Assembly (NCBI GenBank): GCA_001938485.1
Contig: MQRK01254065.1
Span: 1 to 62,699 of the forward strand
Length of the DNA: 62,699 nt
Reading direction: 5' to 3'
Source of the DNA: Girardia tigrina
Lineage: Eukaryota
Of the stretch, positions 2,787 through 37,100 are shown in pieces; position 1 is the first letter of the stretch, and each line of letters begins with the position of its first letter. Below the pieces are notes generated by a model. The model saw nothing but the letters and a program-made list of their open reading frames with translations. It had not been told where the DNA came from and made no database searches. The translations under genes and the position numbers were made by a program.

Positions 2787-2881
2787 TTAATCTATTATGT
2801 TATCAATGAAGCACTTTCTTTTTTTCAAATCATTAATCAGAGCCAACCATGTTTTATTAACTGAAAGGAGATGACTGTTAC
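2787..2881 (-). CDS. HELZ2-like exon 17 (NSHLLSVNKTWLALINDLKKRKCFIDNIID*)
   Basis: 45-nt intron, typical SF1 C-terminal GN..LL...W..L, TAA stop. Confidence 0.85.
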
Positions 2882-5800
2882 CTATGAATATAATATAAAT
2901 ATTTATAAACAGAAAGTCACAAATACCAATTATAAAGAGACCCTTTCTTGCTCTAGTTAATGCCACGTTTAACTGGTTTTTATCATTAATAAATCCTAAA
3001 TATTTACTGATCCAATCTGGGGTAGGATCAGTATCAATATCCTCTACATTTGGAAGTGATCGAACTGTTGAGAAAATAACATAATCACTTTCAGACCCTA
3101 AAATAAAAAAAAGTTAAAATAAAATAATAGGAATTATTTTCAGTAAATAAAAACCAATTCTAATTGTAATGGTGCGGTTAGTTAATAATGAAATCAAAAA
3201 AATATTACTTAATAATTTGTACATTAGAAATATTCAAAATAATTTTGATGTGATTATAAAAAAATGTGATTATATATTATATTTCAAAATTGTTTTTTAT
3301 TAACGCTTTGTAAAACAAACCGCAGAAATAAACTTATACTCTTTTTTGAATCAATTTTTTATTCTACCTCGATATAAAAAAATGATTTTATGAGATAAAA
3401 AATATAAAGCTTTAAAACCAGTATATAAATAAATAGGCTAAAATAATTTAATGAAGAAATAAACTTAATTTAATTACAATTGATTAAGTCGTATGATTTT
3501 ACCTTGACTTTTAACTACAGTTGACACTCTTGGCGGTCCTGGAATATTCAAGTCATTTAGTACATCTTGACAGATCTTTTTCAAAATAGATTCTTGCAAA
3601 CGATACTGAGTGATTATAAGAATTGACTGAGCAGCACTTTCTTTCGAATGTACATTTTTTAGTAGGCTTTTATATAAATATTTCTAAAATATTAATTCTT
3701 AAAAATTTCAAAGTTAATGATAAACGTAAGAATATTTAATGAAAACAAAATATATGGGAAACAACAGAAAAATAAATATTTTTTTGGAGCCATTGTAAAA
3801 AATTTATATATTATAATTGGTATTTTTACTAAAATTGTAAAATAATAATTATTTATGTATTTAGACTCAAATAACACCATTTCAACTTTAAATTTTTATT
3901 AGAAAACATGTTTCACCACTTTTGTGACATCTTCAGTTCTGTATTTAAGTAAAAAAATTATTTTTTATAAAGTACGATGACCATTACGTCACAATGTATT
4001 ATGTCAAAATACTCTTATACGATTGGACGAATCACATTGCACATTTAAACTAGGTTAACAAAACTTTGTTAATAGTGCTTCAGTAATTGTCCTTTCATAA
4101 TTGTGATCAAAGTTACTAATCAAAATCCGAAAATCATTATCAAATACCCTCTTTAAGTTCCATAATATAAATCATTTAATTTACGGATTTGTCTATGCAA
4201 TTTTTGTATATAATTACTCTTAAAGCATTTTAAAACATAAGAAACACAAAAACGAAAAAAATCAATACCAACTATGTTAATCAACAACAATCATACTCTA
4301 TACAGCTCTTCATAAATGATATTTCGAGTTCTTCTTTCATTTTCAATTGATCTTCATAAAAGCTTCTTTTTTAACCTTGAACTGTCTTCATCCAGAAACT
4401 TCATGCAGAAAAAACGAATGGATTTTTACCTGATGAATGAATTTTGTTAACATTTTTCATTCTTGCATATCAATAAAAAATTGATATCCATGTTTTTCTT
4501 TTCCAATTTGATGTATAATTTCACATATTTCTTAAGAAATATTACTTATAGAGTTCGGATGGGTGAAACTTCCATTTCCTGTATGACATATGCAGATGAC
4601 TTGGTTCTCTTAGGCACGTCTAACTTGGCTCTTCAAACTTTGGTTAACACTGCTTCGAAAAATATCAAGCTCACTGGTATTGAGTTCCGATGTTTAAAGT
4701 GTGCCTATATGGACTTTCCCGATCATGACAACAATCAAATATATCTTGAAGATCAAACCATTCCACGTAAAAAGGCTAATGAAGGTTATGTTTATTTAGG
4801 TTGTTTTATTTCCCGTTTTCTTCGTCACACTCCCGAAAGAATGTTCTTGATGATCTTGAGATTCTGAAGAATTCTGCTCTCTTTCCTTCTCAAAACGTAA
4901 TGCTTATCAGACCTATGTGCATTCTAAAATGGTGTTTTACTTTCGTAACACTTACATACCGTTTCCAGATTTGACAACTTTCACAACAGGTTGGGATGTT
5001 CTGGTTAGAATGAAGCAAAAAGAACCGTTAAGTCTTCCTGTATCAGCTTCTACTGGTTACCTGTATTCTTTCATGGTTCATGGTGAAGTAGGTCTTATAT
5101 CTACTTTTGATGTGTATCTTGTGCAATCAATCACGCACTCTTACTACATTCTTACATCACGAGATATCTTTGTGAAAGAAGCTGCTCGAATTACTTTGAG
5201 ACATGCTTCAAAACTGATAATCCGTGCAAGTATTCTTGACTTGATCAATACGGGTTATAAATAATCGGCTTTTGGATCCTGGTGGAATAAAACCCAATAT
5301 GTCATCCATGTTATACATGAGAAATATGGGATCACCGTCAAATTTGGTGACAGTTATCCATCTCTTTTTATCTCCATTTTTCTACAGAATGAATCGTATT
5401 AAATTTCTTCTACCATAAGTTACCAGGATAAAGAAAAGATTGCTATCTTTCTTCGAAAGTGTCTTCACTATCTTCATTACTGGAAGAAGCAAACAAGTAC
5501 TGGTCATTCCGCATGCTCTCTCTTTTTCTGGCTTCTCAACCTCTACTGTTTTCAAGAGTAACTTTTCCTTCTCTGAATGGGATTTTGTTCAACGTAGCTG
5601 GTTCTATACACTTCAAATTGAGTGTCGTTTATAGAAAGTTGTTGTTTATCGTAGAGGTAGAGACTATAATGAGACTTTGGCTCATGTTGTTTCTCATTGC
5701 GGTACTGTTTAGGCTTATATAAATCATCGCCATGACACAGTGGTTGACATTTTAAAGACCTTTTAATACTTAATTAATACCTGTTTTTTCATACATTCTT

Positions 5801-6527: not shown

Positions 6528-9500
6528 ATTTCTAAAATATATTTTATAAAGCCTTTCTTGTGCATGATGATAACAATCATCAATTATGGAATCAGTTGTA
6601 GACCACTTCTCATACTATAATTTATAATTAGATTAGTCAGTTCAAACACGGTAACCCGTCTGTGTTTGATGATGAGAATTTTCGCTGACCTGGTGCAATT
6701 TCTGAACAAAAAGAAAAAGTTTGAAAATTGTTATGGAAGTGCGCAGAATAACTATCAAGGATATCTGTGGTTTAATGTGAGTACTAGGAGCGAGGATATA
6801 TCATCCTAAATATTAGGAGTGTAAGAACATTTAAAACCCTGTGCGTCCCACATTTTCTTTCTTCTGATCTGTGTGAAAGCCGGAAGGAATGTTTCAAAAC
6901 AAATCTTTCCATTTTTAATGAACATGGTGAAGAATTATTCTGGAATGCCCTTACTTTGGATGGAACCCCTTTACGTTTGTGCATTCTTTAGACAAAATAT
7001 TATTCCAGTAAATTGAGATTACTGAGGAAACGAGTGAAATTAAAATGAGTTTTGACATATGTTATCGAAAATCCTTGAATTTGTTAAAAATAACATAATC
7101 TGTACGGATTTTAATAAAAATTGTCAGCGAGTTAATTCCCCCTACTACAGAAACACTGTGGACTGTTTTGGACATGCGCATTATACAGTAGGAGTCATAA
7201 AAGTTGACCGCGAGGTAAACATATTGAATGCTTCACATGTATTTCTATTTATTATATTTAAATCAATAGTTTGCTTTATTTATCAACAAAGGTTTAGTTT
7301 TATGACTTTGTTAGCCAGAATAATCCATAAATCAATTCAAACATAGAATAGACAAACAAAGTCTTTCAATTTTATTTATACTAAAAACCGGTTTTTCGAC
7401 TAAATTGTGGGACAAGCAGTCATCCAGAACTAGACATATGTATTATGTCATTTTTAACCAAATAAATCCTTATTATTAACGTTATTAATATAATAAAAAC
7501 AAACTTACAACAACTCTTGCTTCTGTTTCATTACATTTTGATTTATTACTTCCTGTGTTGCATGATATTTCTTGAGTAACTTCTATTCCTAAAGTATTTA
7601 AAAATAAAATTTTCTCGTAAACAGGAGATCCACTGAAGTTTATATCTCTATCAAAACATTCGAAATTCTTCTTTCTTATACCACCTTTCTTCCAAAACTC
7701 ATCACCAATATTTATATTGTTGCGTTGCAAATCTTTCTATAAAAAGGTTATTAAATGAAATAGAAAAATGTCTAATACTTCAAAGCCTCTGTAAAGTGAT
7801 ATGTATTGCAATCCATTAAAACTTGAATCAACCTTTTCTTCAGGTATACCTGTCCAACTTTCCCAACGTTCAGTTCTTAAGTTCACTTGCTTTTGCTTTT
7901 TATTGTTTTTTCTATTCCCGTAGAAATGATCACTAGGGAATTCGCAAATTGACGGATGCTACAAGTTTTAAATTTTTGATTAAATGTGATAAATAATAAT
8001 TGTGAGTCACACTTAATTTATCATCATAATACAAGGACTTATTTAGTTTTTTTCAAAAATATTTTTTATTTAAAACACAATTTTAATAAATTTTCCAATT
8101 TCTGTCACCGATGTGATATGAAATATTGTCGAATTTGCTGCTTTGCCAAATGACATTCTATTGAAACACAATTGCACCAATGCTGTTGAAAACGGTGTTT
8201 TTATTTTTCATTCATCCAATTCAACTTTGAATTGTAGATTATTTTGCATTTAGTTATTTAATATAAGAAAATTCTGTAATTATTCTTTTCTATCATGACT
8301 AGTGTGTTACTCCCGGGATTTCCCGGGAAAATGCTTGGTTTTAGATTTCCCGAATCCCGGGAATTCGAAAAATTTTCCCGGGACTTTCAATGTGATGTTA
8401 AAATATTTGAAATTTTTATTATCACTATTTTTACTAAGATAATCAAAATTACTAGATTTATTAATATTTAAAATATTACGCTTTTTATAAAATAAACTAT
8501 TTACATATGGATCGAGAACAAAATTACCTCCATTTAGTGGATGGCTCCAATCACCTCTCCTGAAAACGGAGCCCGATCTTTTGAATAATCACCATCAATT
8601 TCGTCATCGTATTCTCCACGTTCTACGAGTCTCATCTCTGAATTGATTTCAGCCACATTGTCATTTCTTCTTTGTCTGAAGTTGTTAAATCTAAAATTAC
8701 CACTTTGACCTTCTTGTTTCTCAAAACACTGGTAACTGAAATGTCCTTGCTTCTTGCATGTTGAACAGCATATGTTTGGGCAGTTCCTTCGGATATGGCC
8801 TTCTTCTTTGCATGCATAGCATTAGATTTTCCGAATTTGGTTGCAGTTTCTGTAGGAATGTCCATCTTTTTTGCAGTTGAAGCATTTGATATCTTCTTTC
8901 TGATTCCACATCTTTGAAATCGCATAATATTTTCTCTGATTTGAAGTGTTTCTCGAGAAGTTATTTGCCGGTATATTCTGAAAGTTTCTTTTCTTTTTCA
9001 CCATCTGAGCAAAAGTTTCTTTTCGATTGAGGACTGCTACGTAGTTGTCTTCTAGAATATATTCCATTTTCTTGACAATACTTTTGATGTCTTCAATTTT
9101 CTTCGCATCGCGCATTTTTAATTCTTTCTTTGTTTCCACATATTTCACAGAATGAACCATGAAATAGGACGTTAATTCCTCTTTATCTTATTTATGAGAC
9201 AACAGTTGGTCGACCATTGTATCGATCTTTTGGAAAAACAGTGCAGCTGGATCACTTCCTTTCTCATAATTGTATAGATTAATAAAATTCTGAATTAATG
9301 AAGATGGTTTCTCAAAAGCCGCTTTCAACCGTTCATCGAAATTGGTTATCTTAGGATCCACAGCTTCATAAATTGAAATGAGATCATTGGCCAACAGTCC
9401 TTTGACGAATACATTTTGGACGTCTCCTTCAATTTTGGAAATTTCAAAGAATCTATTGCAATCTGTAATAAATTCGTTGATGTCTTGTTGTCCATTGAAC

Positions 9501-10997: not shown

Positions 10998-13000
10998 CAA
11001 TTAATAAAACATACCATTCTGTATTGAGTATTGAGCATAATACAATAATCCTCCGTATTATTATAAAGCCTTTCAAAAAGTGATTTAGATAATCCTTTTT
11101 CTTTCGCCTCTTGGCACGTAACTATTGGCCTTAATTGTCTGTGATCACCAATTAAAACTAAATGCTCTATATTTGGCTTATTCGCAAAAGGACTTAGAGC
11201 TTCAATTTCGGAACACATTCCACATTCATCCATAATTACTTGGGAAAATAATAATTTCTTTGACTCTAATAATTTTTTACAAGAACTAGCTGCAGTAGTC
11301 AGAATAATATCGTAGTTTCCTGCTCTTATTTCAGTTTTGAAAGCCTTAAAATAAAAAAGTTTCAATTGTGATTGTATACATAATTTTTTTAAAAAAAAGG
11401 TTTATCATGATTTTGTTAAAGTTGTAATAATGTAACATATTTTTTTCAATCAGAGAAACAAATAGTATATTTTGTCCAATATAAAACAACTGTTTTGCCC
11501 GATTTCCACGTTTCCCAAAACACCGGACGGATTTGAAATTCATGGATTTAGTGTCTGATAGAGGAATTCAAAAAGAAAAGGAAAAGAAACATGATATTAT
11601 GAATTCCTTTTCGACTTTGGAATCCATCCAGCCTTTTGGCTGCAAAAGCGTGTTGATTATCGAATCTTTCTGGCTACAGCACTCTGCCAATCATTTTCCA
11701 TCATTCAGAATTTGATTGACAAATTTCAGTAGCTTTTGGTGCAGAGGAATTCCTTCTCTTTCACATATTACCTTTTTGAGATATTTGATCACCTCTTTGG
11801 AGTCTTAATTAAGATTTTTCGTTTTTCCTGATTAAACATTCAAAAATATTTGAATTTGCAGTAATTCATTAAAGCTATGAAATTCTTCCTCAATGAGGCA
11901 GTGGTCAAAACCCCTATTGCTAAAAGAAGCAAAGAAAAGGGAGATATTATTAGATTTAATGGCAATTTATTTATAAAAAAAATAAAGAAAACTATAATTT
12001 CGGATTAAGTCATTTATATGACACATTGACTATTACGCAACTAATCTTTTTTTATTTAAACAGAATGTTAATCACGTGGATGCAAATTATTTCTAAAATA
12101 TTTTATTGTATGTTCATAAGCTATATATATATATATATAAATAGTGCTTTTCATATTATTAGAAACACTACCATCAGAAAATGTAGTTAGAAAAATGTCA
12201 GCCCCCTAACATGTTTCTTACTTTGAAAAATTTCACTTAACCTTTTTTTAAAGTAAGCAATGAGAAACAGAATGTTTATCAATTCAATTCATGAATAACG
12301 GGGCGCATCATGAATTCGCACACATCAACATACCATCATACTATCTCTTACCACATTACTCAGTCTATTTACCCTCCACCATACTGCTCTTTCGCTACAC
12401 AAACACTTTAAAATAGAAGTGAGGAGAAATGAATTCACAAATAAAGAGAGAGAAATAAAAGAATAATAAATGTATTTCACAAACATTCACTCCAAAGACA
12501 AAAGAGAAATAATATAAGAATAATAATGCAGTGCTCACACGACTCAGATCACATCATCATGCACACAAATCTACGAATGGGGTTTGAATTAATGATTACA
12601 TTTTGAAATTATGGATGTACAGGTTTATGAATTGAAAGGGGAGTACACTGAAGATCGAGATGCTGCACTGTTATATTTATCGTCTTTTTCAGTTACAAGG
12701 AAGCAAGGAAAAAGCTATTACTTCCGAAGGTTTTATGAATCGGAATCAAGCTTTGAAGGTGTAGAGAAGATTTCCAAAGCATGAGTCCAGTAAAGTTTGA
12801 TTTAATCTAAACCGATATTTGCACGGCAAAATTTGAGCTCAAAACGTATTAAGTAATTATGAAATTCGTTAATAAATTTATCAAACGTTTTAAAAATATG
12901 TAAATTTTTTATTATTTATTCATTAATACTAAAAATATTTTTTAAAATATAAATTTAATTATAGAGATCAAAGGCCACACATACATTGATATATAAAATA

Positions 13001-13134: not shown

Positions 13135-16100
13135 TAATCGATAATTATTAACGATTAATTAATTAATTTCATTTGGAAATTTTATATTCGGATTTATTTG
13201 TGTCGGGTTATCAATTTTCCCATTTATCCAAAGGATGTTTCCAAAGGATGTTTACCATGGAATAATAAAACTGTCTACAGTGGATTTTAATAAATCTCTT
13301 GTAATTATATTTTTTTGTCTTATAAACAATTTAACAACGACAATTTTCGATCAAAAATTTCAATTTCAAAAAGAATTATTTGAAAGCCACGTCCACTACA
13401 AATATCGTTGTCGATTAGCACAATTATAACCACAGTAAGAACTCAAATTGTCGGTATTTTATATCAAGTTTCTTTTATTATCGTTTTACTGTTATATTGT
13501 TATTTAGTTTTTTAAATTAAAATTTACTTTCTTTATATAAGGTAAGAATCTTATAAGGTGCTGTATTTTCGTGAAATAGAATATCTTAAACGGAGTGCAT
13601 TTACTATTACACATGACAACGCCAGGCCTCATACCACCATAATAACACAGTAATTTCTGCCTACTAATTGTATTCAATGAATATCCCCGCCGCCCTATTC
13701 GCGTGACATGAACCTACTTCAGAGGTTTATATTCAGGAACACGAAGACAAAGTGGAATCACCGACAGTTACTGAACAAGGCTGCAGTGTAAGCTTTCGTT
13801 TATGAGGGGTTTACTTATTGTTGCGTATTGTTGTATATCAGTTAAATTCTTGATTGTTGAATATAATTTTGTGAGATTGTTTAGAGTCGCAATTTTTTCT
13901 GATAATCTTATATATTGAATAAATTGTTTCCTGTACTAATTTTCAATTCTCTTCGCATTGCTTAAATTGTCTAACTTTAAAAAACGATAATGTCTTATGG
14001 AAAAATAAAATTTGTAAAACATTGAAAATTCATATTTCGAATCAGTTTGAACAATTTTGCAAATTATGTAAAGTGTTATTTGACCTTCAGTGCTTAGTTG
14101 TGGTATGGTACTAAGCCATTTAACCAGTCAGGATAAACCAATCTGAAAAAATTAAATTCTATAAATGACCTCTGAGTCCTATTGTATTTTCATTATTACT
14201 ACAAATGTGCTTTTTCTTTTATAATAAAACCAAACAAATGGATGTGAACATAAATAAATATTTACATTATTTATATCTAAGTCATGCGTGAAACAAGAAC
14301 CCGGCCTGACAATGAAACTAAAACTTAAAATTTGAAGCTGCAGGATTAGTAAATGGGGATCAACCGCAATTTATTAAATATTTTTGCATTGAACAATTTT
14401 AAGCTCTAAACATTTCAAGAAGTATTTTATGAGAGAAACACATACAGTCGAACGATGACAAGGGAATTTAAGCACTTTTTCAATAAGTGCCCTTCGAACG
14501 TCTTTAAGCAAACGCTTGTTGGCGGAAGTATATGGATAGAAAGTGGAGTGATGTTCAGAAACGGTAGCTAATTATCTTTAAAAGATAAAAAACAATCATT
14601 AAAATTTTTTCGATTAATTTCAACGGATCAACTCTGTAAACGAATCCAGGAACAAAATCAAAAAGTGGATGAGAGTTAAATTGCTCAAAATGGAATTATA
14701 TGTTTAGATAGTGTAGTAGATTTAATTTTAAAATTAAAAGTAAATTTAAAATTTTGTATTCACAATTTGATAATTACTGAGAGAGGATGATATATGAAGC
14801 ACTGATGATTGAGACTTTTGATCCAAAATTCAACGTGCAAACATCATCCTCTTCTATTTTATCAAAAATATTCTGAGGATTCATGGATTATGAAATGATT
14901 ACGTTCATATGTCTAAATATATAAAAGTCAGTTTATCAGTTTTGATCTATTTTCGCTTGATGATGACGGTTGATACGTCAAAATTAATCGCAATAAATTT
15001 TGATGATTGTTTTTTTTGTCTTTTTAAGATAACTTATCATCGTTTTTTAGATATTTATACCTAATTGTAATTATCTTTTTGTGTTATAGAGATAATGTGT
15101 TGAAGAGATTGCTTCCGACGTCAGGCCTGGTACTCATCGAATTTATTTCAAAATAAGTTTACCTTTTTTAAACATGATTCATAATTTTTCAAAGCCATTG
15201 CATATTGTATTCTTTCCATTTTATTTCTCGTCGTGTTTTCAAGAAATATACTCTGAAAGTCTTTTAGTTGTTCCGCATGTGGTTTACCAGCAGCTCTAAC
15301 AATATAGTGTAAAGCTATTTCCTTTAATGAGTCTGGACAACCAGAAGACACCGTTTTATATTTTCTTCCAGGATATGGAAAATCGAAATTTACTGTTTCA
15401 CTGTTAAATATCCGTAGCAGTTTTGGACAATTGTCTCCATATATTTGTAATATTTTTTCTAAAAAATAACAAATATCATTAGTACTATCTTTTTCTTTTT
15501 GAAGTCAAAAATTAAAAATTTTATTATACAAATAAAATATTACTAAAGATTGTTGAGAGCAAAGTTATTGAATACAATATTACACAATAAAAGTCAAAAA
15601 TATATAATAAGTTATTAATACTATTACATTTTTACTACAGTATCTGTTAAAATTACAATTTCTACTATTAGTTGAATTATAAATTTTAATAATTTACAAA
15701 ATACCTGCAACAACATTTACACTTTGATTAGAAGGACCACAGTAGAGAACGGTAGATGAATTATTTTGTCTTTGGTTGTAAAGTGCGTAATAATATGCTA
15801 TCATGCATCCAACCATTGTTTTACCCGTTCCTATATATACATAAATGCATTATAAAAACCCCATATAATAATATGTTATATAAAGTATACTGTAAAGCTA
15901 TTATATTACAAAGTTTTTTGAAAAGGAAATGATACCTCAGAAATGACTACACACAGTAATAAACTTAAATTACAATGGTATTTTGTATGTTAAGTAAAAA
16001 AACCTAGCTTATTGTCTTCTACTAGTAATCATGCATGTTATTGTTATGCATATATTTGAAGTTTTGGTTACAAGGGTAACCATTGTTATCACCTAGCAAT

Positions 16101-19100
16101 TTTAAAGGAGAGTATACTTCTTTTTTACCAGTAAAGTTCTTTAAAAACACACATGTATATTCCTGCATAATAGCATACATGCTAAATCTGCCAAAGTAAT
16201 CAGATCCTGGTTCAAAAAATAGAGATTTCATGCCTTACTTGACCTGCATAATCGCCTAATATGAACCCAAAGGAGCGCATTTGATTTATTTTTGATCAAG
16301 CTTCTATCAAAAACCGAAACATGTTTTCTTTTTCCTATGCTTACTAGATTCTTCTCGAGAGGAACAGCTGCCCACTCTAAAAGTATTACCAACAGATTAT
16401 TCTTCATTATGATTATGCTTTCACGTAATATCACTTGAATAAATCCCGTCGCAAATCTAACAAGTGCTGATTGATTCATGTCTTACTATTTGTTTTAATA
16501 AATGTTTTTCTTCTTTGGTGCCCATTTACTTGTGACAAATCAATGTATATTTAATTTATTAATCAGTTCAAACTCTTAGTCTTTACTCACAAATTGTTAG
16601 GTATTCTATTAATAAATATCAAGAGTGGAATTAAGGGTAATTACCATAGTACTATTTCCAAAGAATTGATATAAAGAAACCTACTTAATGTTGTTAATTT
16701 CTGAGATACCATAGTCTTATGTGACGATAAATAGACGCTTAGCAAAATTAAAATTAGAACTCAATAAAAAATTGTATCTCGGTTTATTATTAAACAATTT
16801 CAGCCTAGAGAATGTCAACTGAAAATCCTGTGAACATTGGCGTGATTCCGCCCAAAATGCAATTCTTTTAACTAACTTCGCCACCAACTTACAGCTCTAT
16901 CTAACTGAAGTAATTCATCGATATTGATTATATCATCGTCACTGAACCACCTCGCCATTATCAATAAGAATTTCTCGTAGATAATTTTAATAACGTATTA
17001 ATTATTTATTAATTGAAAATAACAAATCAGTTCATTATATCTTTTACTTATGACCGTAATAAAAACACAAAACTCGACATTGTATAAGTCACTATAATTA
17101 TAGGACAATGAAAGACTTAAATCGGTAAAGACAATATCTGGACATGTATCACAATATTTTTTAAAAGTCATACAAAAATTCAATTATAGAGGTTTCCATG
17201 TGGAGATTAATACTATTTGTTAACTTTCTCCGTTCTTTCACCTTGATGGCCTCTTACAAGCCGTGAAGTAGAATCACATAGTACTTCTCATTTACCTTTG
17301 TATTTCTTTCCTTATATTCAACTAATAACAGCCCTTTGAAATCAAAAAATCCTGTCGCCAATATCCTTTTAGTTTACTGAGTGACCTTGATCTTTTGAGG
17401 AGAAACATACATGGCTTTCTCAATTTCATTGACTCGCTTTTATACTTGATCATATTACAATACCAATGTTTTATCTCCAGTAATAATGGACTATTTTGAA
17501 GGCTTCAGTTATATTTATCAAAAACTCTTGGCAGCATCTCACTCGTTCCTATTTAGGAAAAATCGAAAGAAGCCATGTAATTCACCTTGCAATAACTTTA
17601 TTCATGTGAAAAATTATTCATGATGAATTGAGGTGTCAGTTGTTTTAGATAGCTCTAAGATTACTGCAATTTTCTAGTCTTCAAACGGTGGTTCCATGGA
17701 ACATAAGCCTTAACAAGAGTGATAATATGTGAAGTGAAGATCGTCGCCAAGTTTTTCTCGACCAAATTAAAAAATTTAACCATTTCTTTGTCGGTTGAAT
17801 ATAATGGAAAAGACTTACAATAAAATGAATTAAATCGCTGCTTCATTACTGTTGGTCATACATTTTAACAATTCTATATTCAATTTAAAACATCTAAGAG
17901 CCCAAAGAATATGTTACATAAAAGTAGTGCTACAATTAGACGAATAAAAACAATTGCTATTTATATAGAAATAATAATAACATATGCTTAGTCAAACTAT
18001 TAGCAAAGTAGGAATCAATCACAATAACCGCAAGTTAGTAAGGCCACAAACTTTCTCACAAGACAACGCATTTAAATAATAATTCACATTGTTATTAAAT
18101 TAGAATTAAATTCGCACAACTGAAAATTATTTTTTTAATTTGATCATAAAAAAATATCATTATTCAAAAATTTTAAACTTGTTTATTTGGGAAAATTAAA
18201 TAAATTTATTGAAATATTTCAATAAATAACCAAACTGATCATTTGGTTTGTGTATTCCGGATGTCAAATAGAGTCGGCTTCGCCCCGAACGACATCATTG
18301 TGAATAGGCTTGAGATCCATCAAACGCGAAAGGAACATCTCAAGCTACGGTGTATTCTTCCGGTGCGTTTTAATTCGATCTCCGGGTCGGCCCAAGGGAA
18401 TGCAGTGAAAGTTCTGCCATATAAGAAAACCAATTTGTTTTCAACAGATGCGAAGGAAGTCAAAAAGTCAAATGAGACATCTTTCTACGTAGTTTATTTA
18501 TTTGCCAAAATCCTCATTAGTAAAACAAATTTTAATTATTTTTTTTCAAACACTGTTAAATTCTTTTTCTTAATTGTTTTCTCAATCCGCGAGCACCGAA
18601 TTTTGTTTATTAGATTACTTGATTATCTCTGGCACTAGAAATTAATAGACATAAACTACTCCGTTTCTACTAAATCATTTGAAAGAGTAAATTTATTAGA
18701 CATATATAGTATGTCATTTTAGCCCAGGAGATTAAAGTCGAGGAGGGTAATGGAAATTGAAAAACTAAGGCTTTGTGAGAAAAGTGTAGTGGGTTTCAAA
18801 ATTTTTTTTTACAATTTTCGATGCCATCCTCGTTCCTAATCTACTGATCTAAAATAGCAGACGATACACGTCTATAAAATTTACTCTTTAAAATAAACAA
18901 GTAGTAAAGAACAATTTATGTCAATTGATTTTGAATGCAAGAGGTAAGCTAATAATTATTAGACTTTGAAAACGTTTCAAAATATAGTTACTCAAATGTG
19001 AAAAAATAAAAACTATATACCTGGGGGTCCCCAAATTAAAGTGAAACTTTTAGTAATAGATTTCTGCAAAGCATCTGTTTGTCTCTCATTCAGTATACAC

Positions 19101-22100
19101 TTAGATTTCATGTCCTTTAAAGTTTTATTATACAATTCAAGCACATCTAAAATAGCAGTGTATAAGACATTCAATAATTAACTATATATATACATCTGTT
19201 TTGGTCACTCTTTGCAAAATTTCTCATCACAATATTTGCTGCAAAAGACTCTGGCTGTAATTTTTTCAAAGTTTTTTCGAAAATTCTAAATTAAATTTTT
19301 TTAAATATATTAGAAAATTTCATAAAATATTTCTAAATAAAAATTAATTTTAGTAGATGAAGCAGTGACTATCTTTGTTCCATGTATAAGAAGGAATAAT
19401 AGAAACATCACAATCACACATAAGCATAATTATACATTTGAAAAAAGATTTTTGATATGATTGATTGTGACTGGATGTATTTAACATTTAACCCCTTTTC
19501 AAGATGAAGCGCATGTGTTTGTAATACCTGAAAACCTGAGCTGGTACCTTTCTTCATCCCACCAATAGTTGCAGCAATATTAGTCATGAGATCAGGTATG
19601 GTCATTGATACTATTCCAATTTATTGAAGTATCGCATTGACTGTTGACAATATTTCCACAATCGCGTACAACTGAGGAAGATAATTCGGCAAAGAAAGTG
19701 ACTGATTTATAATAAATATCAATTATCATCACAATTATTGACTGCTCAAAATGCAATTGCTCCAATTTATTCAGTTTCTAGTTCCGCAACATCAATTGAA
19801 AGCGTGTTGAAATATCCAAAGCAGGTAAAAATCAACAAAAAGTAAAATTTGTCTAAAATAATATTGCTGGATTATGTTTACGTGATCAAGCAAAATTTTT
19901 AACTTTGGATGAAAGAGAAAAATTAAAAGCTTTAGAAAAAGAAAACGCTTCGATAAAAAAGATAAAAAATCTTCCAAACAACCGAAAAGACCAAAAGATT
20001 TCCGCCTTCAAAGAAAACGAAAAAAATGAAATTTTACGCGTAAATCCTGAATTGGCATCCCAATTGAAAATTCATCCCAAGTAAGACAAACCTCCAATTT
20101 TGGAGGAATATCCAGAATTGTTGTCAACCATAATACAAATTTTCAACACATGGAGCTGCAGCAGATGACAATCGACGCTGTGAGAGTTTAGGTATTATGA
20201 AAACGCTAAAAGATTTGACAGAAGCTTTACAAAATGAAGGTTTTTATATAGGAAGACTTACTACTATTTACTACCATTTACAAATGAGAAATGTACGAAT
20301 AATCGATGGAAAAATGTATTACGAATATTCCGGTAAAGCTTATTAAAGCAGAAAACGATCACCGCAAGTCTCATCCAGACTCAATTTTTTATATTGTTAC
20401 CATCAGTAATTTAATGGAATTGGCTTTTTGTCTTAGATCTGGTAAAGTTACAATAATAAGCCAGGATGATAAAAAAAAGTTCCAACTTTCAGCAGCATAA
20501 TTGTCAAGCACCTGTACTAATGAACATGAAATACGGTGTTAAGTCACTAGATCCCTACTGAATTGTTACAGAAAACCATAAATTGATACCTTTCTTGTAC
20601 GCAGCATTTATAATTAAATCTGAGGTATACAAAATGTATTCAATATTCAAGATCAACATACATAGCAAACAAGATCTGATATACATTCAAAGTCTACTGA
20701 CAACTCACATGCACGAGATTTTGAAAGACTTTATGAAATTGAAAGCTTCGAACGGCTTTTTAAGCACTTTTCATATACCTTCACTGTATTTCATCTTGTT
20801 AAAAAGATTAAAACACGAATCTTGGCTTTAGACGAAGAATCAAAAGAGTTCAAGTGGCAGAAAGATAATGACGAAATAAATCAGATCAGAGAAGATATTA
20901 GAATGGGAAGAACAAAGAAATGGATACTGAAATACAATATTGTGACAACAATAGATAACAAATATTAGATTCATAGAACCCCAATGACAGAATTTGTGGA
21001 AGACGCTCAGGAGATGCTGTGCCATGCTGCTAGTAAAAAGGTTTATAACTATTTGAAAGATGATTTTGATATGGTTAATATGAGATATATAATTAAGGAA
21101 ATTGTAAAATGTTGCATAAACTGTCAAAAGAGAAAGACTTTAACCACAAAAACGAAATAAAGTTTTATTAAACAATTTGCTGATGAACCATTTCAAAAGC
21201 TGTATATGGATTTTTGCGGGCTATTTAAAAGGACTTTAAATGGATATCAATATATATAATCGATTTAATTAATCAATTTAGCAGGTATATAAGTCTGAAT
21301 GCTGTATTTCATCAAGATAAGAAAACTCTACGAAAGGTACTACTGGACAGATGAATTTGGAAATTCGAACCACCAAAAGAGATCCATGTGGATAGAGGTG
21401 AGGCATTCGAATCGGCACTTTTCAAAGACACACTGAAGAGATTTAAAGGAGAAATAATTTATTCCAGTCCTTATCATCACAATACCAATGGCATCATTGA
21501 AAGACAATTTAGAACTATTAGAGATGCTATGAACATAAGGATAAAAGATCAAGCCCACAAAGATTGGACGGAAATATTGCCAGAAGTAGAATTTATGATG
21601 AACAGCACAATTCAAGCTACCACAGGAATCTCACCAGCAGAAATGATATTTGGTAGGAAGCTAAGACATTGGTGGAATGATACTAAGAAACATAGTTGTA
21701 ATAAGAAAGAAAAGAGCGAAAATACGATAGAGACAAAACAAATATTTTATACAGGGATAAAGTGTTGATAACCAATAAAATTTAAATTAAATATTTTAAA
21801 TAGAATAATTTTCTTTAAGTTAGTTCAGATTATAATTAGAAATATTAAAAATTGAGTAATGTATTAAAGTGAAAGCAATACTATTGATCATCATAGAGAT
21901 GATAAAAAATCTGAATGAAATAAATGTTCTGTCAAATGTGTGAGTTCTCTTAACGATTTATTTTTAATTTGAAAGTGATTAAAATAATTATGAAATTTTA
22001 ATAAAGCTATGAAACCTATTCGAAATTGGTGTTTCCATGAATTCGACTGAATAAAGTTGACTTTCCGAATGCTTCATTGGGAAACTTGAATGAACTAACT

Positions 22101-25100
22101 TTATCGTCAAATGAACTGTTAATTCTTGATCTAAAGTATTATTTTTCTCTATTAAACAAACATCTGACATTCGACAATGCCCGATCCAATAAACATTTTT
22201 TTCTTCAATGAAAGTTTGAATACATAATAAATAATCCATTTTATTTCTTTTCACAGCTTCCTCTAGAGCTTGAAAAGAATCAAATTTACTCGTTTTCTCG
22301 TGAACTAACCGAAGAAACCTTTCTTTACACCATTTGTCTTCTAAAACTATAATTCCATAATTATCTTCTGTTAAATTACATCCAGCTTCAATCTTTGACT
22401 TTTTCATAGCAATCCAAATTATTTTTAAATCATGAATATAAAAACTAGATTCACTATTAATAGTCTGATAAATTCCTTCAAGTCTGTTAAGAATGATAAA
22501 TTGGGATTTATATTTGTTGATATCATGAAATCTTTCATAACTAATATTCAATAATTCTTGAGGATTCATGAAGTACTTCAAAGGGTCATTTCTATGGCAA
22601 AGACAAACTCTGAAATCCGGATTTATTATCCAAATTTCCGGAATGATCTTCATTATTCCATTACTGTAATCATAACCGAATTGGATCCTCATTATTTGTC
22701 GAGGTCGCATAGAAAAATTTAATGTCACTGTTGTATCAATACTCTTTATTATTTCTGATGTTATTCTTTTCTTATACGTCTCATTAATAAGGATATTTTC
22801 AATTGTTATACTTCTTGAATGTGCATTATCTGAGTTAATCATTGAGTATTGTTTGTCATTCAATCTTAAACTGTAAATATCTTCTAATAAAATGTGATTT
22901 AATTCAAATGAAGAGTTAATATTGGAAATATTATATAAAAATATTCTTGCTTTCCATGTCAAATCTAAATCATATTCAATTATAGGGTATTCATAAGTAA
23001 TAACTTTAGAAAGACCTAATGCGTTATAAAGAATAAAATTTTCATGGTTTACTTCATCTAAAAATGGATGATGAAAGAAGATTCTGTCATTCCAATGTTC
23101 TTCATAGACACAATCGAGTACGAAGCTCGACCCCTCAAACAAATGTCGAATCTCATATCCGTTACAAATTTTCCAATATTTATCGAAAGATATTTTGTAT
23201 TTTTCATAATCTACCAAACTTTTAATTTGTTTTCTTAAGTCAACATCTTTATTATCTTTTGTTAAGATTCTTTGCAACTCAGCATCCAAATAACATGACA
23301 ATGGATTCGTAATACTTAATAATTGGGAACGAACAATTTCTTTCCTGTTCCTTGAACATGTATTTGTTGCAAAATAATTTGCAAAATTAAGTCCATTTAT
23401 CAAAGTTTCTTTTTCATGAAACACACAATATGAATCTGTGATTTCTGTATTGAAAGTTTCCTTCCACTTGTGATGATAAAAATCCACATCTGGACATAAT
23501 GATTCACAGTGAAATAATTTTGTAGAATTACCTTTCAAAACTTCGCATATAAATTGTTTACTAAATCGTGGATTTGGAGATTGTCGACGTTGAAATGTGT
23601 TGACAAATCGACAAATTCGGTTATTCAATACAGGAGAATATTTCATATTGTTATTCAAAGCTGCCTCGGTACAAATGTTGCTCAGTAAGTCTGAGTCAAT
23701 AGGCCGAAAATCCCTATATATCAGAGAAGCTCTTTTGTTTATCAAAAATTGTAATTCCTCTTCTATAACCAATGCTGTTTCGTTTACTTTCAGTTGAAAA
23801 TTTGGATAGAAACAGTTTGGTCTTATGTTACCTTTTATCCTATTATAGTGACATTGTTCACAAAATTCATAAATTCTATTCAAGAAATGATAACCGTCTA
23901 TATTATTATTTATTAAATGATCAGTAATGTTAACATCTAGTTCCATGTCCAAAATAATTTTCTCAAATGTAAAGCTTGAATATTCAATATTTAAGACTGA
24001 TGTTGTATCATTTACGTTTAAATAACAAGAAATAACATCCGTTTCTTTATCCTTCTGTATTGACAAAATTTCCGTCGTGAGATATGTGGAAAATAAATAA
24101 TCTGGCTGCATATGGTTTTGTTCTTCTTTTCCAACGTTTGGCAAAAGAAATGTAAAAAAGCGATGTCGTGCAAGATCATCTATATGATTATCATTTGCTT
24201 GAATCACTTTCAATACGTTAACAATATGAATTCCGACACTCATTCGTGTTTCATCAATCTTCTCAAAGCTGTAAGCAATCTCATTGAATTCCTTCTTTGG
24301 ATGTTTTATGGAAAAATATTTTCTTTTACTTTCTAGATGAAGTTCATTTTTATTATTATGGTATTTTTGTGAATCTTTCATCTTTTCTTTTTTAATTCTA
24401 ATGATATCATCTTGTATGAACCTTTCTTCGTCAAGTCCAATGGTAGATATATCACATGATACCTTAATTAAATTTAAAGTATTTTCAAATTTAACATCTG
24501 GTGTATGTAAACCAATGACTTCACCAAATGGAAATCTAAAGTTTTCATCCCATGTTTTATAAAGGACTGAAAATATAAAGTCGCATCTGTAACTATCCAC
24601 ACAACGAATCTCTTTTACTGTTGTTGTCATATCTTCGTTCAATTGTTTTATGGTCACAAAATGTCCATTGGCGAATGATTCGATGCGATCAATATTTATT
24701 TCTGATTGAATAATTGAACTCAAATTAACAACTTTTTTCATATTTTTAAGATCCTTGTAATTTTCTTTTACTTGGCGTTTAGCGTATTTATTGTCAACAA
24801 CGATAAGTGGGATAGTGTTACAGATGGGTTTCATCAGATTCGATTTTCCACAAATTAGATGACACAGGAAGATTTTATGAACTGGTTGGACATTGCTTTG
24901 CAATACAGACACCACTCGACCAGTAAAAGGAGCAGGTTTCGGATGGTTGTTCTCAAAAATCTAAAAATAATTATTTTAAAAATTATAATTAATATACAAA
25001 TAAATATGATCAAAATTTATTTTTGATTGATTAATAGAACACAAATTAACAAAGTTATTCATATTCTTAGGATCTTGATAATTTTCTTTGGATTTTTAAT

Positions 25101-28100: not shown

Positions 28101-31100
28101 AGGAAAAGAAATTATTGTTTTTTTATTTATTTAACCAAAATATTTCAATAACAAAAACATAAAAGTTCTATAAACTCTTCATACGACATATTAAAGTTAA
28201 GATAGGGCGGCCAGCTCTGTCCTCTCCAGCTCTTCTCTCATCTTGCTTCTATCGTTTCTCCATTCAGATTCAATTATCGAAACCATGCAGTCAACAAAAG
28301 CGTTACTTACAGTTACTTTAAGTTCTTTACTGACTATTTAGTTAATTTCAGTAAGATTAATTGTACTAAAAATATTTACTCAGATTTGTTCTGTTGACTC
28401 TTGAATTTCTATACATTTCAATATTGTATGAATCAAAACAGTTAGTTGTATGAACGATTTTCATTAATATAAACATGAAAAATTTCTAAATTTTTTAAAA
28501 TTAAATATTTCAAGTCGTATTTTTTATATTTAAGACTTAACTTTTGAAATGACTGTTTTCAAATTTTTAGTATCTTGTCAAATAGTTAAAACATCGCATG
28601 TATATATTTAGACAATCAGATTCGATGTAATTACGCACTTTGCAACCGAAAAATTCTTTGAACCCTCAGTCTAATTTTTCTTTCAAAGAAATTCTAACGG
28701 CATAATCGTTAATAAAGTTTAGGGAAGGTAAAAATAATAAAAGGTGATCTACATCTTTAGTTTGATGAATTATATAATTAAAAAATATAATTAAATTTTA
28801 TTCAAATAATTACCGTCACATTCACAATATCTTGATTGAATGCTCTATTACAATTTCTTCTATTGTGCAAGTAAATTTTTTTCCCTACTTCCTCACCTTC
28901 GAGAACCTCCGCAAATCCGGAATGAGCATCTTCCAAATTTAATTTGCATTTCTATAAGCAATATCGATACAGAACAAATAATAAACATTGAATTACATGA
29001 ACTTCATTTAGCGGAGCTGATAAATAAAATGGTTTTCTTTTCGAAAATGGCTTAATATTTTCTTTAAAATCAATGTAAGCTTCAGATGGTTGGTAACCGG
29101 GTTGAAACACATCGTACCTTTGCCTGCCTAAACAACAAGAAAACAAAAATCAATTTTGCAAAAAATTGATTAAACATGTCAAAATTATCGTTTTACCAGA
29201 TAAATTCTTTAATATTGAGGAAATTTACAAATATTTCTACACATTTTTGAAAATTGATGAATTTGAATTATGTCATTGAAACCACTGTTACTGAAAACGT
29301 GGGTTACCAAAAATTTTAAAAGGGAAACTGACTTCATTGTTAACTTTAATATAATCATCTGGCATTAGTCCTATCACGAAACTGTTCATATTAGTAGAGT
29401 CTTTTTCTCTTTTTATAAAACTTTTGTTGTGTTTGGTAAATACGATTTATTATTTCAATTTAATTCATACAAATATCCATTAAAAATACTTAACCCTTAA
29501 ATGCATATTTTTTTTATAATTAAAAAACGTTTTATATAGGAAAAGATTCATAGATTATGCAAAAAAATAAATGAAAATATCTAGGTAATAATTTTGAGAG
29601 TTTATTTGAAAACGGTCATTAAGACATTTTCTATGGTCACAAGTAGGGCCCAATATTTACTGCGGCAAGAAATGATAGATTCCGCGGCATGTTTTGTGTC
29701 GCCCTGGAAACTTATACAAACAAATAATAATACAAGTAAAATAACTTTATATTCTATTTTTCTAATCTTATTTCTATTCTTCAGTCAATCACAATAATTA
29801 TTCAAAGAAGTATATCAAAACATTTACATTTTATCTTTTGTTAAAAAAACTGCACCATAAGCTCGCAGGTTTTCTTGTGATAGAGAATATCGCAATGGTG
29901 ACAACACCAATTCACAATTCGAGAAAGAACGTTCCACATCAACAGAAGAGATCGGCAGTGCAATGTAAACTTTAGCAAGTGCTGCTAAACAAGGCAGTCT
30001 GTCCTGTAACGCACTTCAAAGTGTAGTCAGATCAGCTTGAATTAATTCACGAAATAAAAATATTGCATACAATTACTTTTTAAGTTCTATGATTTAAATC
30101 GAATATTAATATTTTAATAATTTCCATATCGGAAATTAAAAAGTAATTATTAATTAATGTCGCGGAATCAGCCTACCAGCACTGAAAAAAAAATGTTAAT
30201 GCATTTCTTTGTGTGTTAATATTGTGCATGTTGTATATTGATTCGGATTGTGCCTCTCCTGCACAGATGGATGATTGATATTTTCTTTGATTCTTACTAA
30301 TTAAAAATAATTTAATTTAATTTTAAAGTAAAAAGATTTAAAATAATTTTTGAATATATTATTTATTTTTTAATGTAATTTAAAATTTCAATATATTCAT
30401 TTAATATGTTCTTTTTTTAAAAATATTTAGATTTAATTTCAATCAATTAGATTCTTTATAATTAATAATTTTTATTAACAGATTTTCCTTTATTGAAAAT
30501 AATTAGTTTGAACTCAGAAAGATATTGATCAAGTGAGATGTCAAATAGTGAATGCGCTTGTGATATCAATAAATGTTGTAAACCTCATATTGATGTCGTT
30601 AATATGGCGACCACAGCTCATGTGACAACGAAAATTATGGGACACGAAAAATTTGATGGATCCGAGTTGAAATTAGATGACTTCATAAACAATTTCGAAC
30701 GTTATGCGGATATTATAGGTATAACAGAAGATAGAAGATTAGTGATGGTGACGATCTTCATGACTCCATCAGCAATCACAAAATTTTCAGAAACAGATGG
30801 AACTACGTATAAAGAAAGCTTAACGTGGCATTAGTGAAAGAAAAATCTTTGCTCGACACAATGAAGTATATTTTAAATCTCCGGTGGGGATCTTCAGATC
30901 CATAAGAAACGTTCAAAAAAGCTGAAGAATTAGTAACGATATTAACAGAAAGTAAACTTTCTAAGAAAAAGCTGCTCAACCTTGTTTGCANNNNNNNNNN
31001 NNNNNNNNNNNNNNNNNNNNNNNNNNNNNNNNNNNNNNNNNNNNNNNNNNNNNNNNNNNNNNNNNNNNNNNNNNNNNNNNNNNNNNNNNNNNNNNNNNNN

Positions 31101-34100: not shown

Positions 34101-37100
34101 ATTGTGCCTCTCCTGCACAGATGGATGAATGATATTTTCTTTGATTCTTATTAATTAAAAATAATTTAATTTAATTTTAAAGTAAAAAGATTTAAAATAA
34201 TTTTTGAATATATTATTTATTTTTTAATGTAATTTAAAATTTTAATATATTCATTTAATATGTTCCTTTATAAAAATGTTTAGATTTAATTTCAATCAAT
34301 TAGATTCTTTATAATTAATAATTTTTATTAACAGATTTTCCTTTATTGAAAATAATTAGTTTGAACTCAGAAAGATATTGATCAAGTGAGATGTCAAATA
34401 GTGAATGCGCTTGTGATATTAATAAATGTTGTAAACCTCATATTGATGTTGTTAATAGTCGGTACATGGTCTTCGCCGAAAGACGCCCGGAAGCCAATGC
34501 AATCGATCGAAAACCGTACAAGTCGTTAAAGGGTTAAATGAACATTGATTTCGAATAATGACGATTTTGATGATTTCTACACGGTACTTCGTGAAAATAT
34601 TTATGAAAATACTAATTTATTTGATAAATGACGATTTTTATCACATATTTACTAATTATATTTCTAAAAATCAATTTAGGTTAAATTTGTAAAATTTCGT
34701 TATCATCTGATTCACAGTTTGTCGGTCAAGCTAAAATTTTATTATGATCATATATATGTCACGCAGGAGAGGGGGACAGAATTTTGTGACGAAATGTGAT
34801 TTGACGGAATCCGCGGCGTGACGTTTTTATCTCTCAAAACCATAATTTCCGCGGCCCGTGCTAAGTCGTGGGCCCTAGTTATAAGCGTGTATTCGGTAAC
34901 TTACACATGCAGGTTTTTCGATAAAATAAGGTAAAACAGGAATGTTGCATTGAAGAATTTATATAAGAAGAACACTGAAAAATTATCTTACGACAGAAAT
35001 AAAATTGATTCATTTTATCAATTTTTGTATAGTTTACGTTATTATGTTTTTTGCATTCATTCGTTTCAAGTCCTAGAAAAAGTGTATATTAGGAAGTTAT
35101 AGCAATTTAATATAGGAAATAAATTATGTTTTTGTTGTCATTAAATCATGCAGGTACATAATAAAAAATATTGATATTTATCAAAAAAAATTCATGAAAT
35201 ATATACCTTTTAATATTCGCATAAGTGTATCAAAATTTTTCTTATTACGATCGAGGTCGTCTTTCTCAACACTTATTGGAATATGAGTATGCGTACTTCC
35301 CATGAAACTGTAAAATTCTTTATATTCGTACAAAAATTCGCTTCCGTGAATAAATTGGTTTGGTTCTAATATAATATGTTTTTTAAAATACAAAATTGTA
35401 ATTTATTGTAAATTTTTATAAATAAAAACAATTTTTTTCGGAAGATAAAAAAACGTGATTATTTTGATTTAAAAATGTACCAATGCAAAATTGATGATTA
35501 TTATTATATAAATGCTTTATTCAGATGAAAAATTAAGATAAGAAAATCCAACAAAAGGTACTAGAATGTACATATGCGTCGTCAGTCCTAAAATATAAAT
35601 TTACAGAATCTTTTACTATATTTAATAACAAAAATTTAAATTCTTATTTTATTTTATTTTTTTTACTTCTTAAATAGAACCCCGTTCAACAATGCTTTTA
35701 CATTTTTGAAATCGAGCATAGAAGAATAAATTGTCTTTTGAATTAGTGTTGTTTTATTTGATGATATAGAAAACCATGAATCAATAGTTGTAAAGTGGTA
35801 CAAGAGCAATATTTTGTTTCAATTAATAAGACTTCAAATAAACATAAAAAAGAAAAATAAGATGTTTTTTGAAACAAAATTTTTCTTTTAAAACCAAGAC
35901 AAATATCCTGAGTTCTTTTAATAATTAAATTCATCTTGTTCCTCTTTTTTTGATGATTGCTCTTAGATATGAAACATTACATGAACCAAAAACATATTGC
36001 TGAATGGTATGGAGAAGATACTGATCAAGTGCAGAAAAGTGGTGATGCCCTTTCTTACTAAACTTTTCATTAAATTGGTTACATAATCATTATTTTAAAT
36101 ATTTATCTGGAATTTTCTCAAGTCGAGAGATAACAACCAATACTTCATCAAACAAATAATTCATCATTGCTACATACTTTTTCAAATTTTTCAATTTCTA
36201 GCACTTAATGTTGCGCTGCTCCCGAAGAATTCAGAAAATGTTTGTCGAATGTTTTTCGAATCTATAAAATTTGTTGATAAAATCCATATTGAGGATTAAG
36301 AACTCTTGGAAGTTTGATGAGTTCATATATAGTACCCTTATATTGTACCTAAAGTTTAGATCCCAGATTTTGGGATTCCACATCTAGTATTATTCCGTTC
36401 AATTGGCCATGTTTATTTTTTATTCACAAACTCAAAACATATGAAATGTATAAAAATGGTATACTTTATCATAAGAAGGAAAATGATGAAAAATAACCTG
36501 CTATTAAATATTTGTCAAACTGAATATGAATAATATAAAACGATCTTCCTTTGCCATATTTTCTAACGGTAAATGTCGGTATCACTGAAACAAATATGAT
36601 CTTTTGGTCTAGATTTTCCATGATTTTTTCGAAATTTGAATTTAAAAAAAACTCCTGAAAAGATAAATCGTAAATATCGATGAATACACAATAAAAGAGT
36701 TAACAATTGAAACGATTCCTAACAAATTGTACAAAACAAAATGTATTTTCGTATCATTAAATAATTTGTACAGAAAATTGAAGCTAAATATAAACTTTGA
36801 CGTTTTTACTTTTCGATGGATTGATGTTTGTTCAAAACTGCTTTTGTTTAAATTTAAAATTGGAACTTTATTACTTGTAATGCAATTTTTATTATTTAAA
36901 TTATTTGTTATATATTCAAAATAGAACTGTTTTAAATAATATTAGCTTCTGTTTTAGTTGCATCGTGCTCGGCATTAGGTATGAAAATTAAAACAAATAA
37001 TTTAAATAAAATAAGCAAACAAATATAAAAAATCTATATAATAAGTAAGTTGTATCACACAATCAAATTAAAATCAAATCAAATACAGGGTGCGGCAGCT

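Follow-up and report, generated by a model that had tools for sequence, protein, structure and literature searches.

Can a protein of the HELZ2 type act on RNA once its nuclease domain has lost the residues that cut? The question is raised by a gene on the minus strand of a 62,699-nucleotide contig of Girardia tigrina (MQRK01254065.1, assembly GCA_001938485.1; this whole stretch is called the window below), in which an RNB ribonuclease domain without its catalytic signature is encoded ahead of an intact-looking helicase. An earlier note on this DNA had described the product as a pseudonuclease fused to an intact helicase, a description that the motif loss, the retained fold and the full set of helicase motifs in the predicted protein support. 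Our overall reading, put forward with moderate confidence, is that of a spliced HELZ2-like gene whose RNB domain would be nuclease-dead, whose helicase would act as a remodeller and whose product would have a role in defence.

The active site was read from an alignment of eight big exons of the same genome, five with the altered signature (called dead below) and three from intact paralogues. The metal-binding segment of the window gene, SIKHPKKEFNEIAYS (24268..24312, minus strand), aligns without gaps to TIDNETTTDMDDAIS of the three intact paralogues, and the four aspartate positions of DxxxxxDxDD are occupied by K, F, E and I in exon 7 and by K/Q, F, E and I across all five dead sequences. 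The second motif, SITNPLSCYLD (23284..23316, minus strand), stands against HFTSPIRRFTD, with Ser replaced by Asn and Arg-Arg by Ser-Cys, a pair that reads S/T-C across the dead sequences. The catalytic motifs are intact in 3/3 sister paralogues and lost in 5/5 dead sequences. In this alignment, the claims of the earlier note that no metal-binding aspartate is retained and that both arginines of the SPIRR motif are gone hold. A misaligned motif was ruled out by the gap-free match to the sister paralogues, and a sequencing or assembly error by the fact that the changes are common to four loci with differing synonymous codons. From these residues, the RNB domain is very probably nuclease-dead.

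Is an RNB fold present at all? Among the Pfam families that had been proposed as a check, AAA_11 (E 8e-17) and AAA_12 (E 1.4e-12) matched the gene, whereas RNB stayed below threshold on exon 7, with 25 bits (E 1.4e-5) against a cut-off of 29.3; OB_Dis3 exceeded its own cut-off. Exon 7 alone gave no match to the PDB by sequence, and a profile built with the paralogues did. An AlphaFold model of the part comprising the cold-shock domains (CSD), the RNB domain and the S1-like domain (680 residues, 93 aligned sequences) reached a mean predicted local distance difference test score (pLDDT) of 76.7 and a predicted template modelling score of 0.77, with the catalytic segment in blocks at 94-97; a fold obtained from an 8-sequence alignment (pLDDT 30) was not used. 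Foldseek returned 43 matches for the model at E ≤ 0.001, those shown all belonging to the RNase II/RNB family. VIA-align placed model residues 1-665 at Z 29.0 to Rrp44 and to S. pombe Dis3L2, and the model at Z 28.7 to mouse Dis3L2 (4pmw; root-mean-square deviation 3.5 Å, 485 residues) and Z 25.6 to Ssd1 (7am1), whereas the highest-scoring unrelated row reached Z 4.5. A protein Atlas search returned RNB clusters alone, with the features RNB and OB_Dis3 and a score of 0.95. The earlier note had named the absence of an RNB fold as a reason to give up its reading; in the predicted structure, both an RNB fold and an S1-like domain are present.

The extent of the loss within this fold was assessed on homologues from a profile search (7064 at E ≤ 0.001, the best 150 analysed). 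Fifty-five RNB columns are conserved in at least 80% of the 136 homologues with an intact signature; at least two of the three own intact paralogues retain 44 of these, whereas only 21 are retained throughout the five dead sequences. For the 36 conserved columns outside the RNB domain, retention is 24 in the own intact paralogues versus 23 in the dead sequences, so the residue loss is specific to the RNB domain. In exon numbering, the dead clade has lost the catalytic aspartates, the Asp of HI-x-D-V (present in 136/136 intact homologues), Arg307, Arg422, His539, Tyr547, Ser552, Arg555 and Arg556, and its exons retain His245, Arg374, Glu401, Glu402, Asn408, Asp559 and Arg564. Several of the lost Arg, His and Tyr positions are ones that we take to line the RNA channel. 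The earlier proposal that the pseudonuclease binds RNA through the RNB domain is weakened by this count: because so many RNA-channel residues are lost, RNB-mediated binding is doubtful, and the cold-shock, S1 or helicase domains are the more likely site of any RNA contact. The RNB domain appears to have been kept as structure, catalysis and probably canonical channel binding being gone. A channel or active-site role is supported for R500 and the D residues in PMC7144899, and for the Ser and Arg by the human mutants of PMC10516660.

Two points count against a dead nuclease. First, the third Asp position, the equivalent of a residue described as essential, D209 (PMC8097288), is a conserved Glu in 5/5 dead sequences, which the earlier note missed although its statement that all four aspartates are replaced stands. 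Secondly, Anabaena RNase II is reported to need no more than two acidic residues at this site for activity and to tolerate the Arg-to-Ala change (PMC7144899), so that motif loss is no proof of activity loss. A case for a nuclease that is still weakly active, or active in a changed way, by means of the conserved Glu or a rebuilt site, could draw on both points and on the seven retained residues listed above. Such an enzyme would have to work with K/Q, F and I at three of its four acidic positions, and would lack the arginine equivalent to E. coli R500, the Ser that precedes it, the HI-x-D-V Asp, Arg307, Arg422, His539 and Tyr547. Among the best 150 of the 7064 homologues, 14 are without the fourth Asp, 10 of those also without the third and 8 without the R500-type Arg; since the ten carry S, N, E, G or Q at the third position, Glu is no general solution. 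We consider residual activity very improbable.

The RNB domain lies in exon 7 (22016..24960, minus strand), 2945 nt within a minus-strand open frame of 990 codons at 21988-24960. As previously claimed, this exon is stop-free, and it has an AG acceptor before 24960 and a GT donor after 22016; Pfam, the fold and the splice joints assign to it the end of CSD1, CSD2, the pseudo-RNB domain, the S1-like domain and a pre-helicase region. The ends of the big exon are common to dead and intact paralogues. The full model comprises 17 exons, 5694 nt and 1897 residues without internal stops. GT-AG splice joints were found for 10 of its 16 introns, from 47345 down to 15458, in contigs of the public runs X1, X2 and X3 (one sample), X12 and X5, that is, five runs from three samples and three studies. 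Five joints are present in 4/4 runs, exon 7 being joined at both ends in 4/4, and the two most 5′ joints in 2/4. One X1 contig leads from inside exon 7 into the helicase exons and continues for 1256 more letters, against 1185 coding letters predicted to remain. These ten joints, from runs presumed to be RNA, speak for a spliced transcript, the absence of which had been named beforehand as telling against the gene.

All exons lie on the minus strand. Coding begins at the first ATG (MEDDEQ...) in exon 1 (47345..47534), whose joint to exon 2 (47294/47345) is found in X1 and X5, the X1 contig beginning at about 47620 as judged by length; the 86 nt 5′ of this ATG hold no in-frame stop, so an extra upstream exon is possible. 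Exon 2 (47146..47294; joints in X1 and X5), which belongs to no known family, exon 3 (36498..36654) and exon 4 (35207..35365) are N-terminal exons with joints and AG/GT ends. Exon 5 (28997..29127) has joints in X1, X12 and X5, and exon 6 (28814..28951) encodes the first part of a HELZ2-type OB fold (CSD1), according to Pfam OB_HELZ2, our own profile and its joints. The N-terminal 263-265 residues had no blastp match among the fetched homologues, a Pfam scan of three of the five exons gave nothing below E 0.05, and exons 1-5 (47534-29127) did not match the upstream exons of the intact paralogues.

Does the helicase remain complete? The model reads, in order, 263 residues of no known family, the HELZ2-type OB fold (Pfam E 3.3e-5 on exon 6 alone; own profile E 1e-11 on the spliced model, residues 262-329), CSD2, the RNB domain, the S1-like domain and one Upf1-like helicase. 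Exon 8 (19194..19285), exon 9 (19021..19146), with the Q motif and the first half of Walker A (GPP-G), and exon 10 (15705..15830), with the remaining Walker A (TGKT), motif Ia and an AAA_11 match (E 0.0011), have their joints in 4/4 runs; exon 11 (15163..15458), a helicase insertion region, is covered and joined at its 5′ side in 4/4 runs. The boundaries of exon 12 (11015..11344; Walker B DECG, motif III GDHRQL and QYRM) are predicted, as are exon 13 (7779..7958; HPSI of motif IV), exon 14 (7509..7736), exon 15 (3503..3683; start of motif V, VVKSQG) and exon 16 (2927..3097; motif VI, NVALTRAR), all five on AG/GT ends and paralogue matches; exons 12 and 16 carry the stronger AAA_11 and the AAA_12 matches. 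Exon 17 (2787..2881), predicted from the spliced model, terminates in the stop codon.

The spliced model contains LNERQ, GPPGTGKT, PSNQSV, DECG, GDHRQL, SLFERL, QYRMHPSI, VVKSQGSE and NVALTRAR, so that motifs Q and I-VI are all intact in a model whose last six introns are predicted, in agreement with the canonical superfamily 1 ATPase motifs first reported. Homologues with an intact RNB signature show the same motif forms, for example IIDECG, TVVKSQGSE and NVALTRA in P0016. Dead paralogues B and D likewise have motifs I-IV intact, and the tandem neighbour has I-VI. On this evidence, we expect with high confidence that the helicase is active. The OB_HELZ2 fold, CSD2, RNB fold, S1-like domain and helicase bear out the HELZ2-like identity that had been proposed, with the reservation that the protein has one helicase: neither a first helicase nor a zinc-finger head was found in the 1897-residue model, the 263 residues before CSD1 hold no helicase motifs, and AAA_11 and AAA_12 had no match between 28951 and 59888. 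One-helicase forms are frequent: of 50 homologues whose RNB domain is followed by a Walker A, 33 have none ahead of it, although some are perhaps partial models.

The genome itself was searched with the RNB family profile and then with exon 7 as query. The RNB-family search gave three loci with long frames and strong scores and several weak-scoring loci, and it is the latter that exon 7 matches at 46-64% identity. There are at least four distinct dead loci, namely the window, C251754 (with duplicate contigs), C142334 with its 98% variant C163213, and C157096, which equals C243140; the three intact paralogues, I1-I3, have their big exons at loci L016, L017 and L018, and the Dis3-type genes are separate loci. 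The dead paralogues are 45-74% identical to one another in the RNB domain and 55-79% in the CSD2 region, and score 25-47 bits with Pfam RNB; between the dead and intact clades, identity over the big exon is 22-23%. In the three unsaturated dead pairs (paralogue D gives pairs close to saturation in this domain), the ratio of nonsynonymous to synonymous substitution rates (dN/dS, NG86) is 0.35, 0.30 and 0.34 in the RNB domain, with 100-bootstrap ranges of 0.25-0.48, 0.23-0.39 and 0.25-0.47, against 0.22-0.24 for the intact pairs. The check across paralogues that the earlier note had called for thus indicates purifying selection.

These values bear on whether the RNB domain is a decaying spacer, or the gene an incipient pseudogene. 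Decay would agree with the sub-threshold Pfam score, the low-confidence segments in the second half of the modelled RNB domain and the indels among paralogues. It is largely refuted by the RNB dN/dS of about 0.3, with all bootstrap ranges below 0.5, and is further opposed by the five dead exons, which are stop-free over 990-1057 codons at a synonymous divergence (dS) of 0.6-1.5 between distinct paralogues, and by the splice joints. We hold decay to be scarcely tenable, and a pseudogene was ruled out on the same three grounds; the retained fold and the selective residue loss within the RNB domain also favour the earlier view that this is not pseudogene decay. Because at least four dead paralogues with a dN/dS of about 0.3 stand beside three intact ones, the loci represent a conserved pseudonuclease clade.

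Several side observations concern these paralogues. Between I1 and I2, dS is 0.26 in the RNB domain, 1.39 in CSD2 and 1.28 after the S1-like domain; between I2 and I3, it is 0.37 in the RNB domain versus 1.51 and 1.44, respectively. Since dS is low in the RNB domain and high in the flanking regions, this suggests gene conversion homogenising the nuclease domain of the intact paralogues. Upstream of the window gene lies a tandem paralogue on the same strand, whose last two exons (59888..60208, minus strand) were identified by helicase-domain and paralogue matches and whose helicase exons (L044, L045) run on to about 80700 (C254065:62700-81295). They are 51-70% identical to those of the window gene, like the dead clade, and the corresponding RNB exon would fall past the contig end. 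The intact paralogue at C227828:8350-11283 likewise has another HELZ2-like 3′ end upstream in tandem (55360-76183). In dead paralogue C (L020:679-3849, L022:700-3870), the S1-like domain is followed by an insertion of about 66 residues that is acidic and repetitive.

Did the signature disappear once or repeatedly? The best profile matches are Macrostomum lignano proteins, in keeping with a flatworm host, and 18/18 scanned homologues carry RNB and OB_HELZ2. Dead-signature homologues, all 14 known as gene models only, include proteins of an oyster (Saccostrea cucullata XP_062566529.1), a snail (Batillaria attramentaria KAK7471580.1 and KAK7490454.1) and a sea cucumber (Apostichopus japonicus PIK58281.1), which are without the third and/or fourth Asp and often without the Arg. 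A tree with the motif columns masked was built from 43 rows picked after viewing a 158-row FastTree: all 14 dead homologues, four dead and three intact sequences from the genome itself, and 22 intact neighbours. It requires 9 state changes, at least 7 of them forced by starred branches, and a single origin of all dead forms was rejected (p-AU 1.7e-69). The tree is unrooted, comes from a quick search without a Dis3 outgroup and has long branches and odd compositions flagged, and the reading of state changes as losses presupposes that the motif is ancestral. The dead and intact clades of this genome are sisters (SH-aLRT 100), with Macrostomum proteins next (96); the dead clade has a long stem branch of 1.73 changes per column, and the dead forms elsewhere are also nested among intact relatives. 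By this placement, the descent of the Girardia protein is within the HELZ2-like family. The best 150 profile matches include no other species' orthologue of the dead clade, and word-index protein searches (residues 100-640 versus longer proteins; the dead-clade alignment at near lengths) found no relatives. One Macrostomum lignano homologue, P0152 (PAA79107.1), has a truncated helicase followed by two RRM domains, which may be a gene-model fusion.

What, then, could such a protein do? In human HELZ2, Walker mutants of helicase 2 are reported to lose LINE-1 inhibition, and D1346N/D1354N/D1355N to have a less than 2-fold effect on it (10.1101/2022.03.26.485892). The Girardia protein mirrors this division, having kept the helicase 2 and lost the RNase. 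Because human HELZ2 deprived of its RNase activity keeps its helicase-2-dependent restriction of LINE-1, the Girardia protein is likely to be a nuclease-independent RNA-protein remodeller. A defence role is probable by analogy with human and oyster HELZ2, with indirect support from the tandem expansion, the long stem branch and the upregulation of oyster Helz2 reported in infection by ostreid herpesvirus 1 (OsHV-1; 10.64898/2026.05.15.723513); the role of sensor suggested in the earlier note is without support. In the sequence of events that we propose, a one-helicase HELZ2-like ancestor would have been duplicated, one branch remaining able to cut and the other giving up its active site together with much of its RNA channel. 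As a rigid scaffold, the RNB domain would then position both cold-shock domains, as well as the S1-like domain, against the motor. Loading would take place on single-stranded RNA through the OB folds and the motor, which would travel 5′ to 3′, unwinding structure or removing proteins on its way. Retroelement or viral RNA might thereby be blocked from use without degradation, or be exposed and left to other nucleases.

The coexistence of dead and intact clades in a single genome, each of them expanded and with tandem neighbours, would also suit a service to the intact paralogues, in which the dead proteins unwind and hand over RNA, regulate their relatives within a complex, or draw off viral HELZ2 antagonists as decoys; the nesting of dead forms among intact relatives elsewhere in the tree fits as well. 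The 22-23% identity between the clades is low for a decoy, there is no evidence of contact between dead and intact proteins, and enzymes of the RNB family are mostly monomers. We judge such a service unlikely.

Conservation of CSD2 that equals or exceeds that of the RNB domain among the dead paralogues (55-79% versus 45-74%) could instead point to regulation of host mRNA in the manner of Ssd1 or HELZ, with binding at the cold-shock surface, a motor used for translational repression or ribonucleoprotein remodelling, and no defence role. Ssd1 offers a precedent, its outer CSD face being described as binding RNA (PMC8934651), and HELZ, the closest relative of the helicase domains, is reported to repress and destabilise mRNA (PMC10516660). 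The repeated duplication, tandem layout and stem branch of 1.73 changes per column would nevertheless fit a defence family better, and the Ssd1 cold-shock domains are highly conserved across fungi, whereas those of the dead paralogues differ by 21-45% within one genome. Regulation of host mRNA without defence seems to us rather improbable.

Other observations weigh against the reading of a spliced, nuclease-dead remodeller with a defence role. In the structural model, pLDDT is below 50 at 119 of 680 residues, mostly in the second half of the RNB domain, and the folding alignment consists mostly of intact homologues, which may pull the model towards their fold. Among the contigs listed, none covers the 5′ exons, the RNB domain and the helicase together; prediction of the last six introns relies on AG/GT ends and on matches to paralogues; and the public runs were presumed to be RNA by guess, one sample possibly having the same source as the genome. 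A planarian helz2 transcript, which may be of the dead or the intact kind, is reported only in peripharyngeal cells (10.1101/756924). The human HELZ2 of the analogy has two helicases and zinc fingers absent from the model.

If the reading of a nuclease-dead remodeller is true, the clade would be natural proof that the core job of HELZ2 is that of helicase 2. A natural family that has kept the helicase and dropped the nuclease, beside intact sisters, would separate the two activities, and HELZ2 function without RNA cutting would become open to study by paralogue-specific knock-down. Labels such as ‘3′-5′ exoribonuclease HELZ2-like’ include proteins without the signature (14 of the best 150 homologues). 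In its widest form, which we advance only tentatively, HELZ2 may have spawned nuclease-dead, helicase-active paralogues at least seven times in animals, the Girardia clade being the furthest evolved and expanded, restricting retroelements or RNA viruses without cutting, as an animal, defence-linked counterpart of Ssd1. Our literature searches, made in a library without most subscription papers, listed no report of a natural nuclease-dead HELZ2, and the supplement alignments of PMC10516660 may show cases.

Two further features of the window and genome can be recorded. Broken frames resembling long terminal repeat (LTR) retrotransposons (reverse transcriptase, RNase H, integrase, protease and gag-like) occur within introns of the gene and upstream of it, at 31924-32918, 38796-41752, 44834-46270, 48837-52848, 21355-21768, 8537-9577 and 4451-4867, and several have deep cover by contigs of related copies that differ by a few percent. 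In the genome, many long single-frame genes (1100-1700 aa) carry AAA_11 and AAA_12, for example in C143850, C135078, C231875, C176108, C239801, C49437 and C173685, which suggests an expanded Upf1-like helicase family, perhaps ZNFX1-like.

Human HELZ2, also named PRIC285/PDIP1, shares with the Girardia protein the HELZ2-type OB fold, the second CSD, the RNB and S1-like domains and an Upf1-like superfamily 1 helicase, whose motif forms are those of HELZ2-like homologues. It differs in being an active 3′-5′ exoribonuclease with two helicases and zinc fingers, the Girardia protein having no catalytic signature and its model no counterpart of the vertebrate zinc fingers and first helicase. The human enzyme is described as an exonuclease that gets through duplex RNA with the aid of its helicases (Huntzinger et al. 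2023, PMC10516660), and its RNase activity as abolished by D1601N, S1920L and R1923L (PMC10516660); from the S-P-x-R spacing, we infer that S1920 and R1923 match changed positions of the window protein. Macrostomum lignano PAA71165.1 and PAA62996.1 and the own intact paralogues have the same single C-terminal helicase, but keep DxxxxxDxDD and SP-x-RR and are about 20-24% identical to the dead protein. The dead Saccostrea protein likewise retains a single C-terminal helicase, in which Walker A and motifs V and VI are present. Unlike the Girardia clade, the other dead-signature homologues have separate origins and a less diverged RNB domain (Pfam 97-214 bits in the 12 scanned, versus 25-47).

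The RNB pseudonucleases described in the cited literature are fungal, comprising Ssd1, Sts5 and relatives (PMC8097288, PMC8934651). As reported there (Ballou et al. 2021; Bayne et al. 2022; structure 7am1), they have in common with the Girardia clade a retained RNB fold and an active-site signature lost repeatedly in independent lineages. The Girardia protein is not a member of the Ssd1 family, having a HELZ2-type OB fold and a fused helicase and being sister to intact HELZ2-like paralogues. Ssd1 is described as keeping the fold, blocking the funnel and binding RNA on the outer CSD face (PMC8934651). Ssd1 descends from Dis3L2 and is without a helicase, whereas the Girardia clade is of HELZ2-like descent and is fused to a motor.

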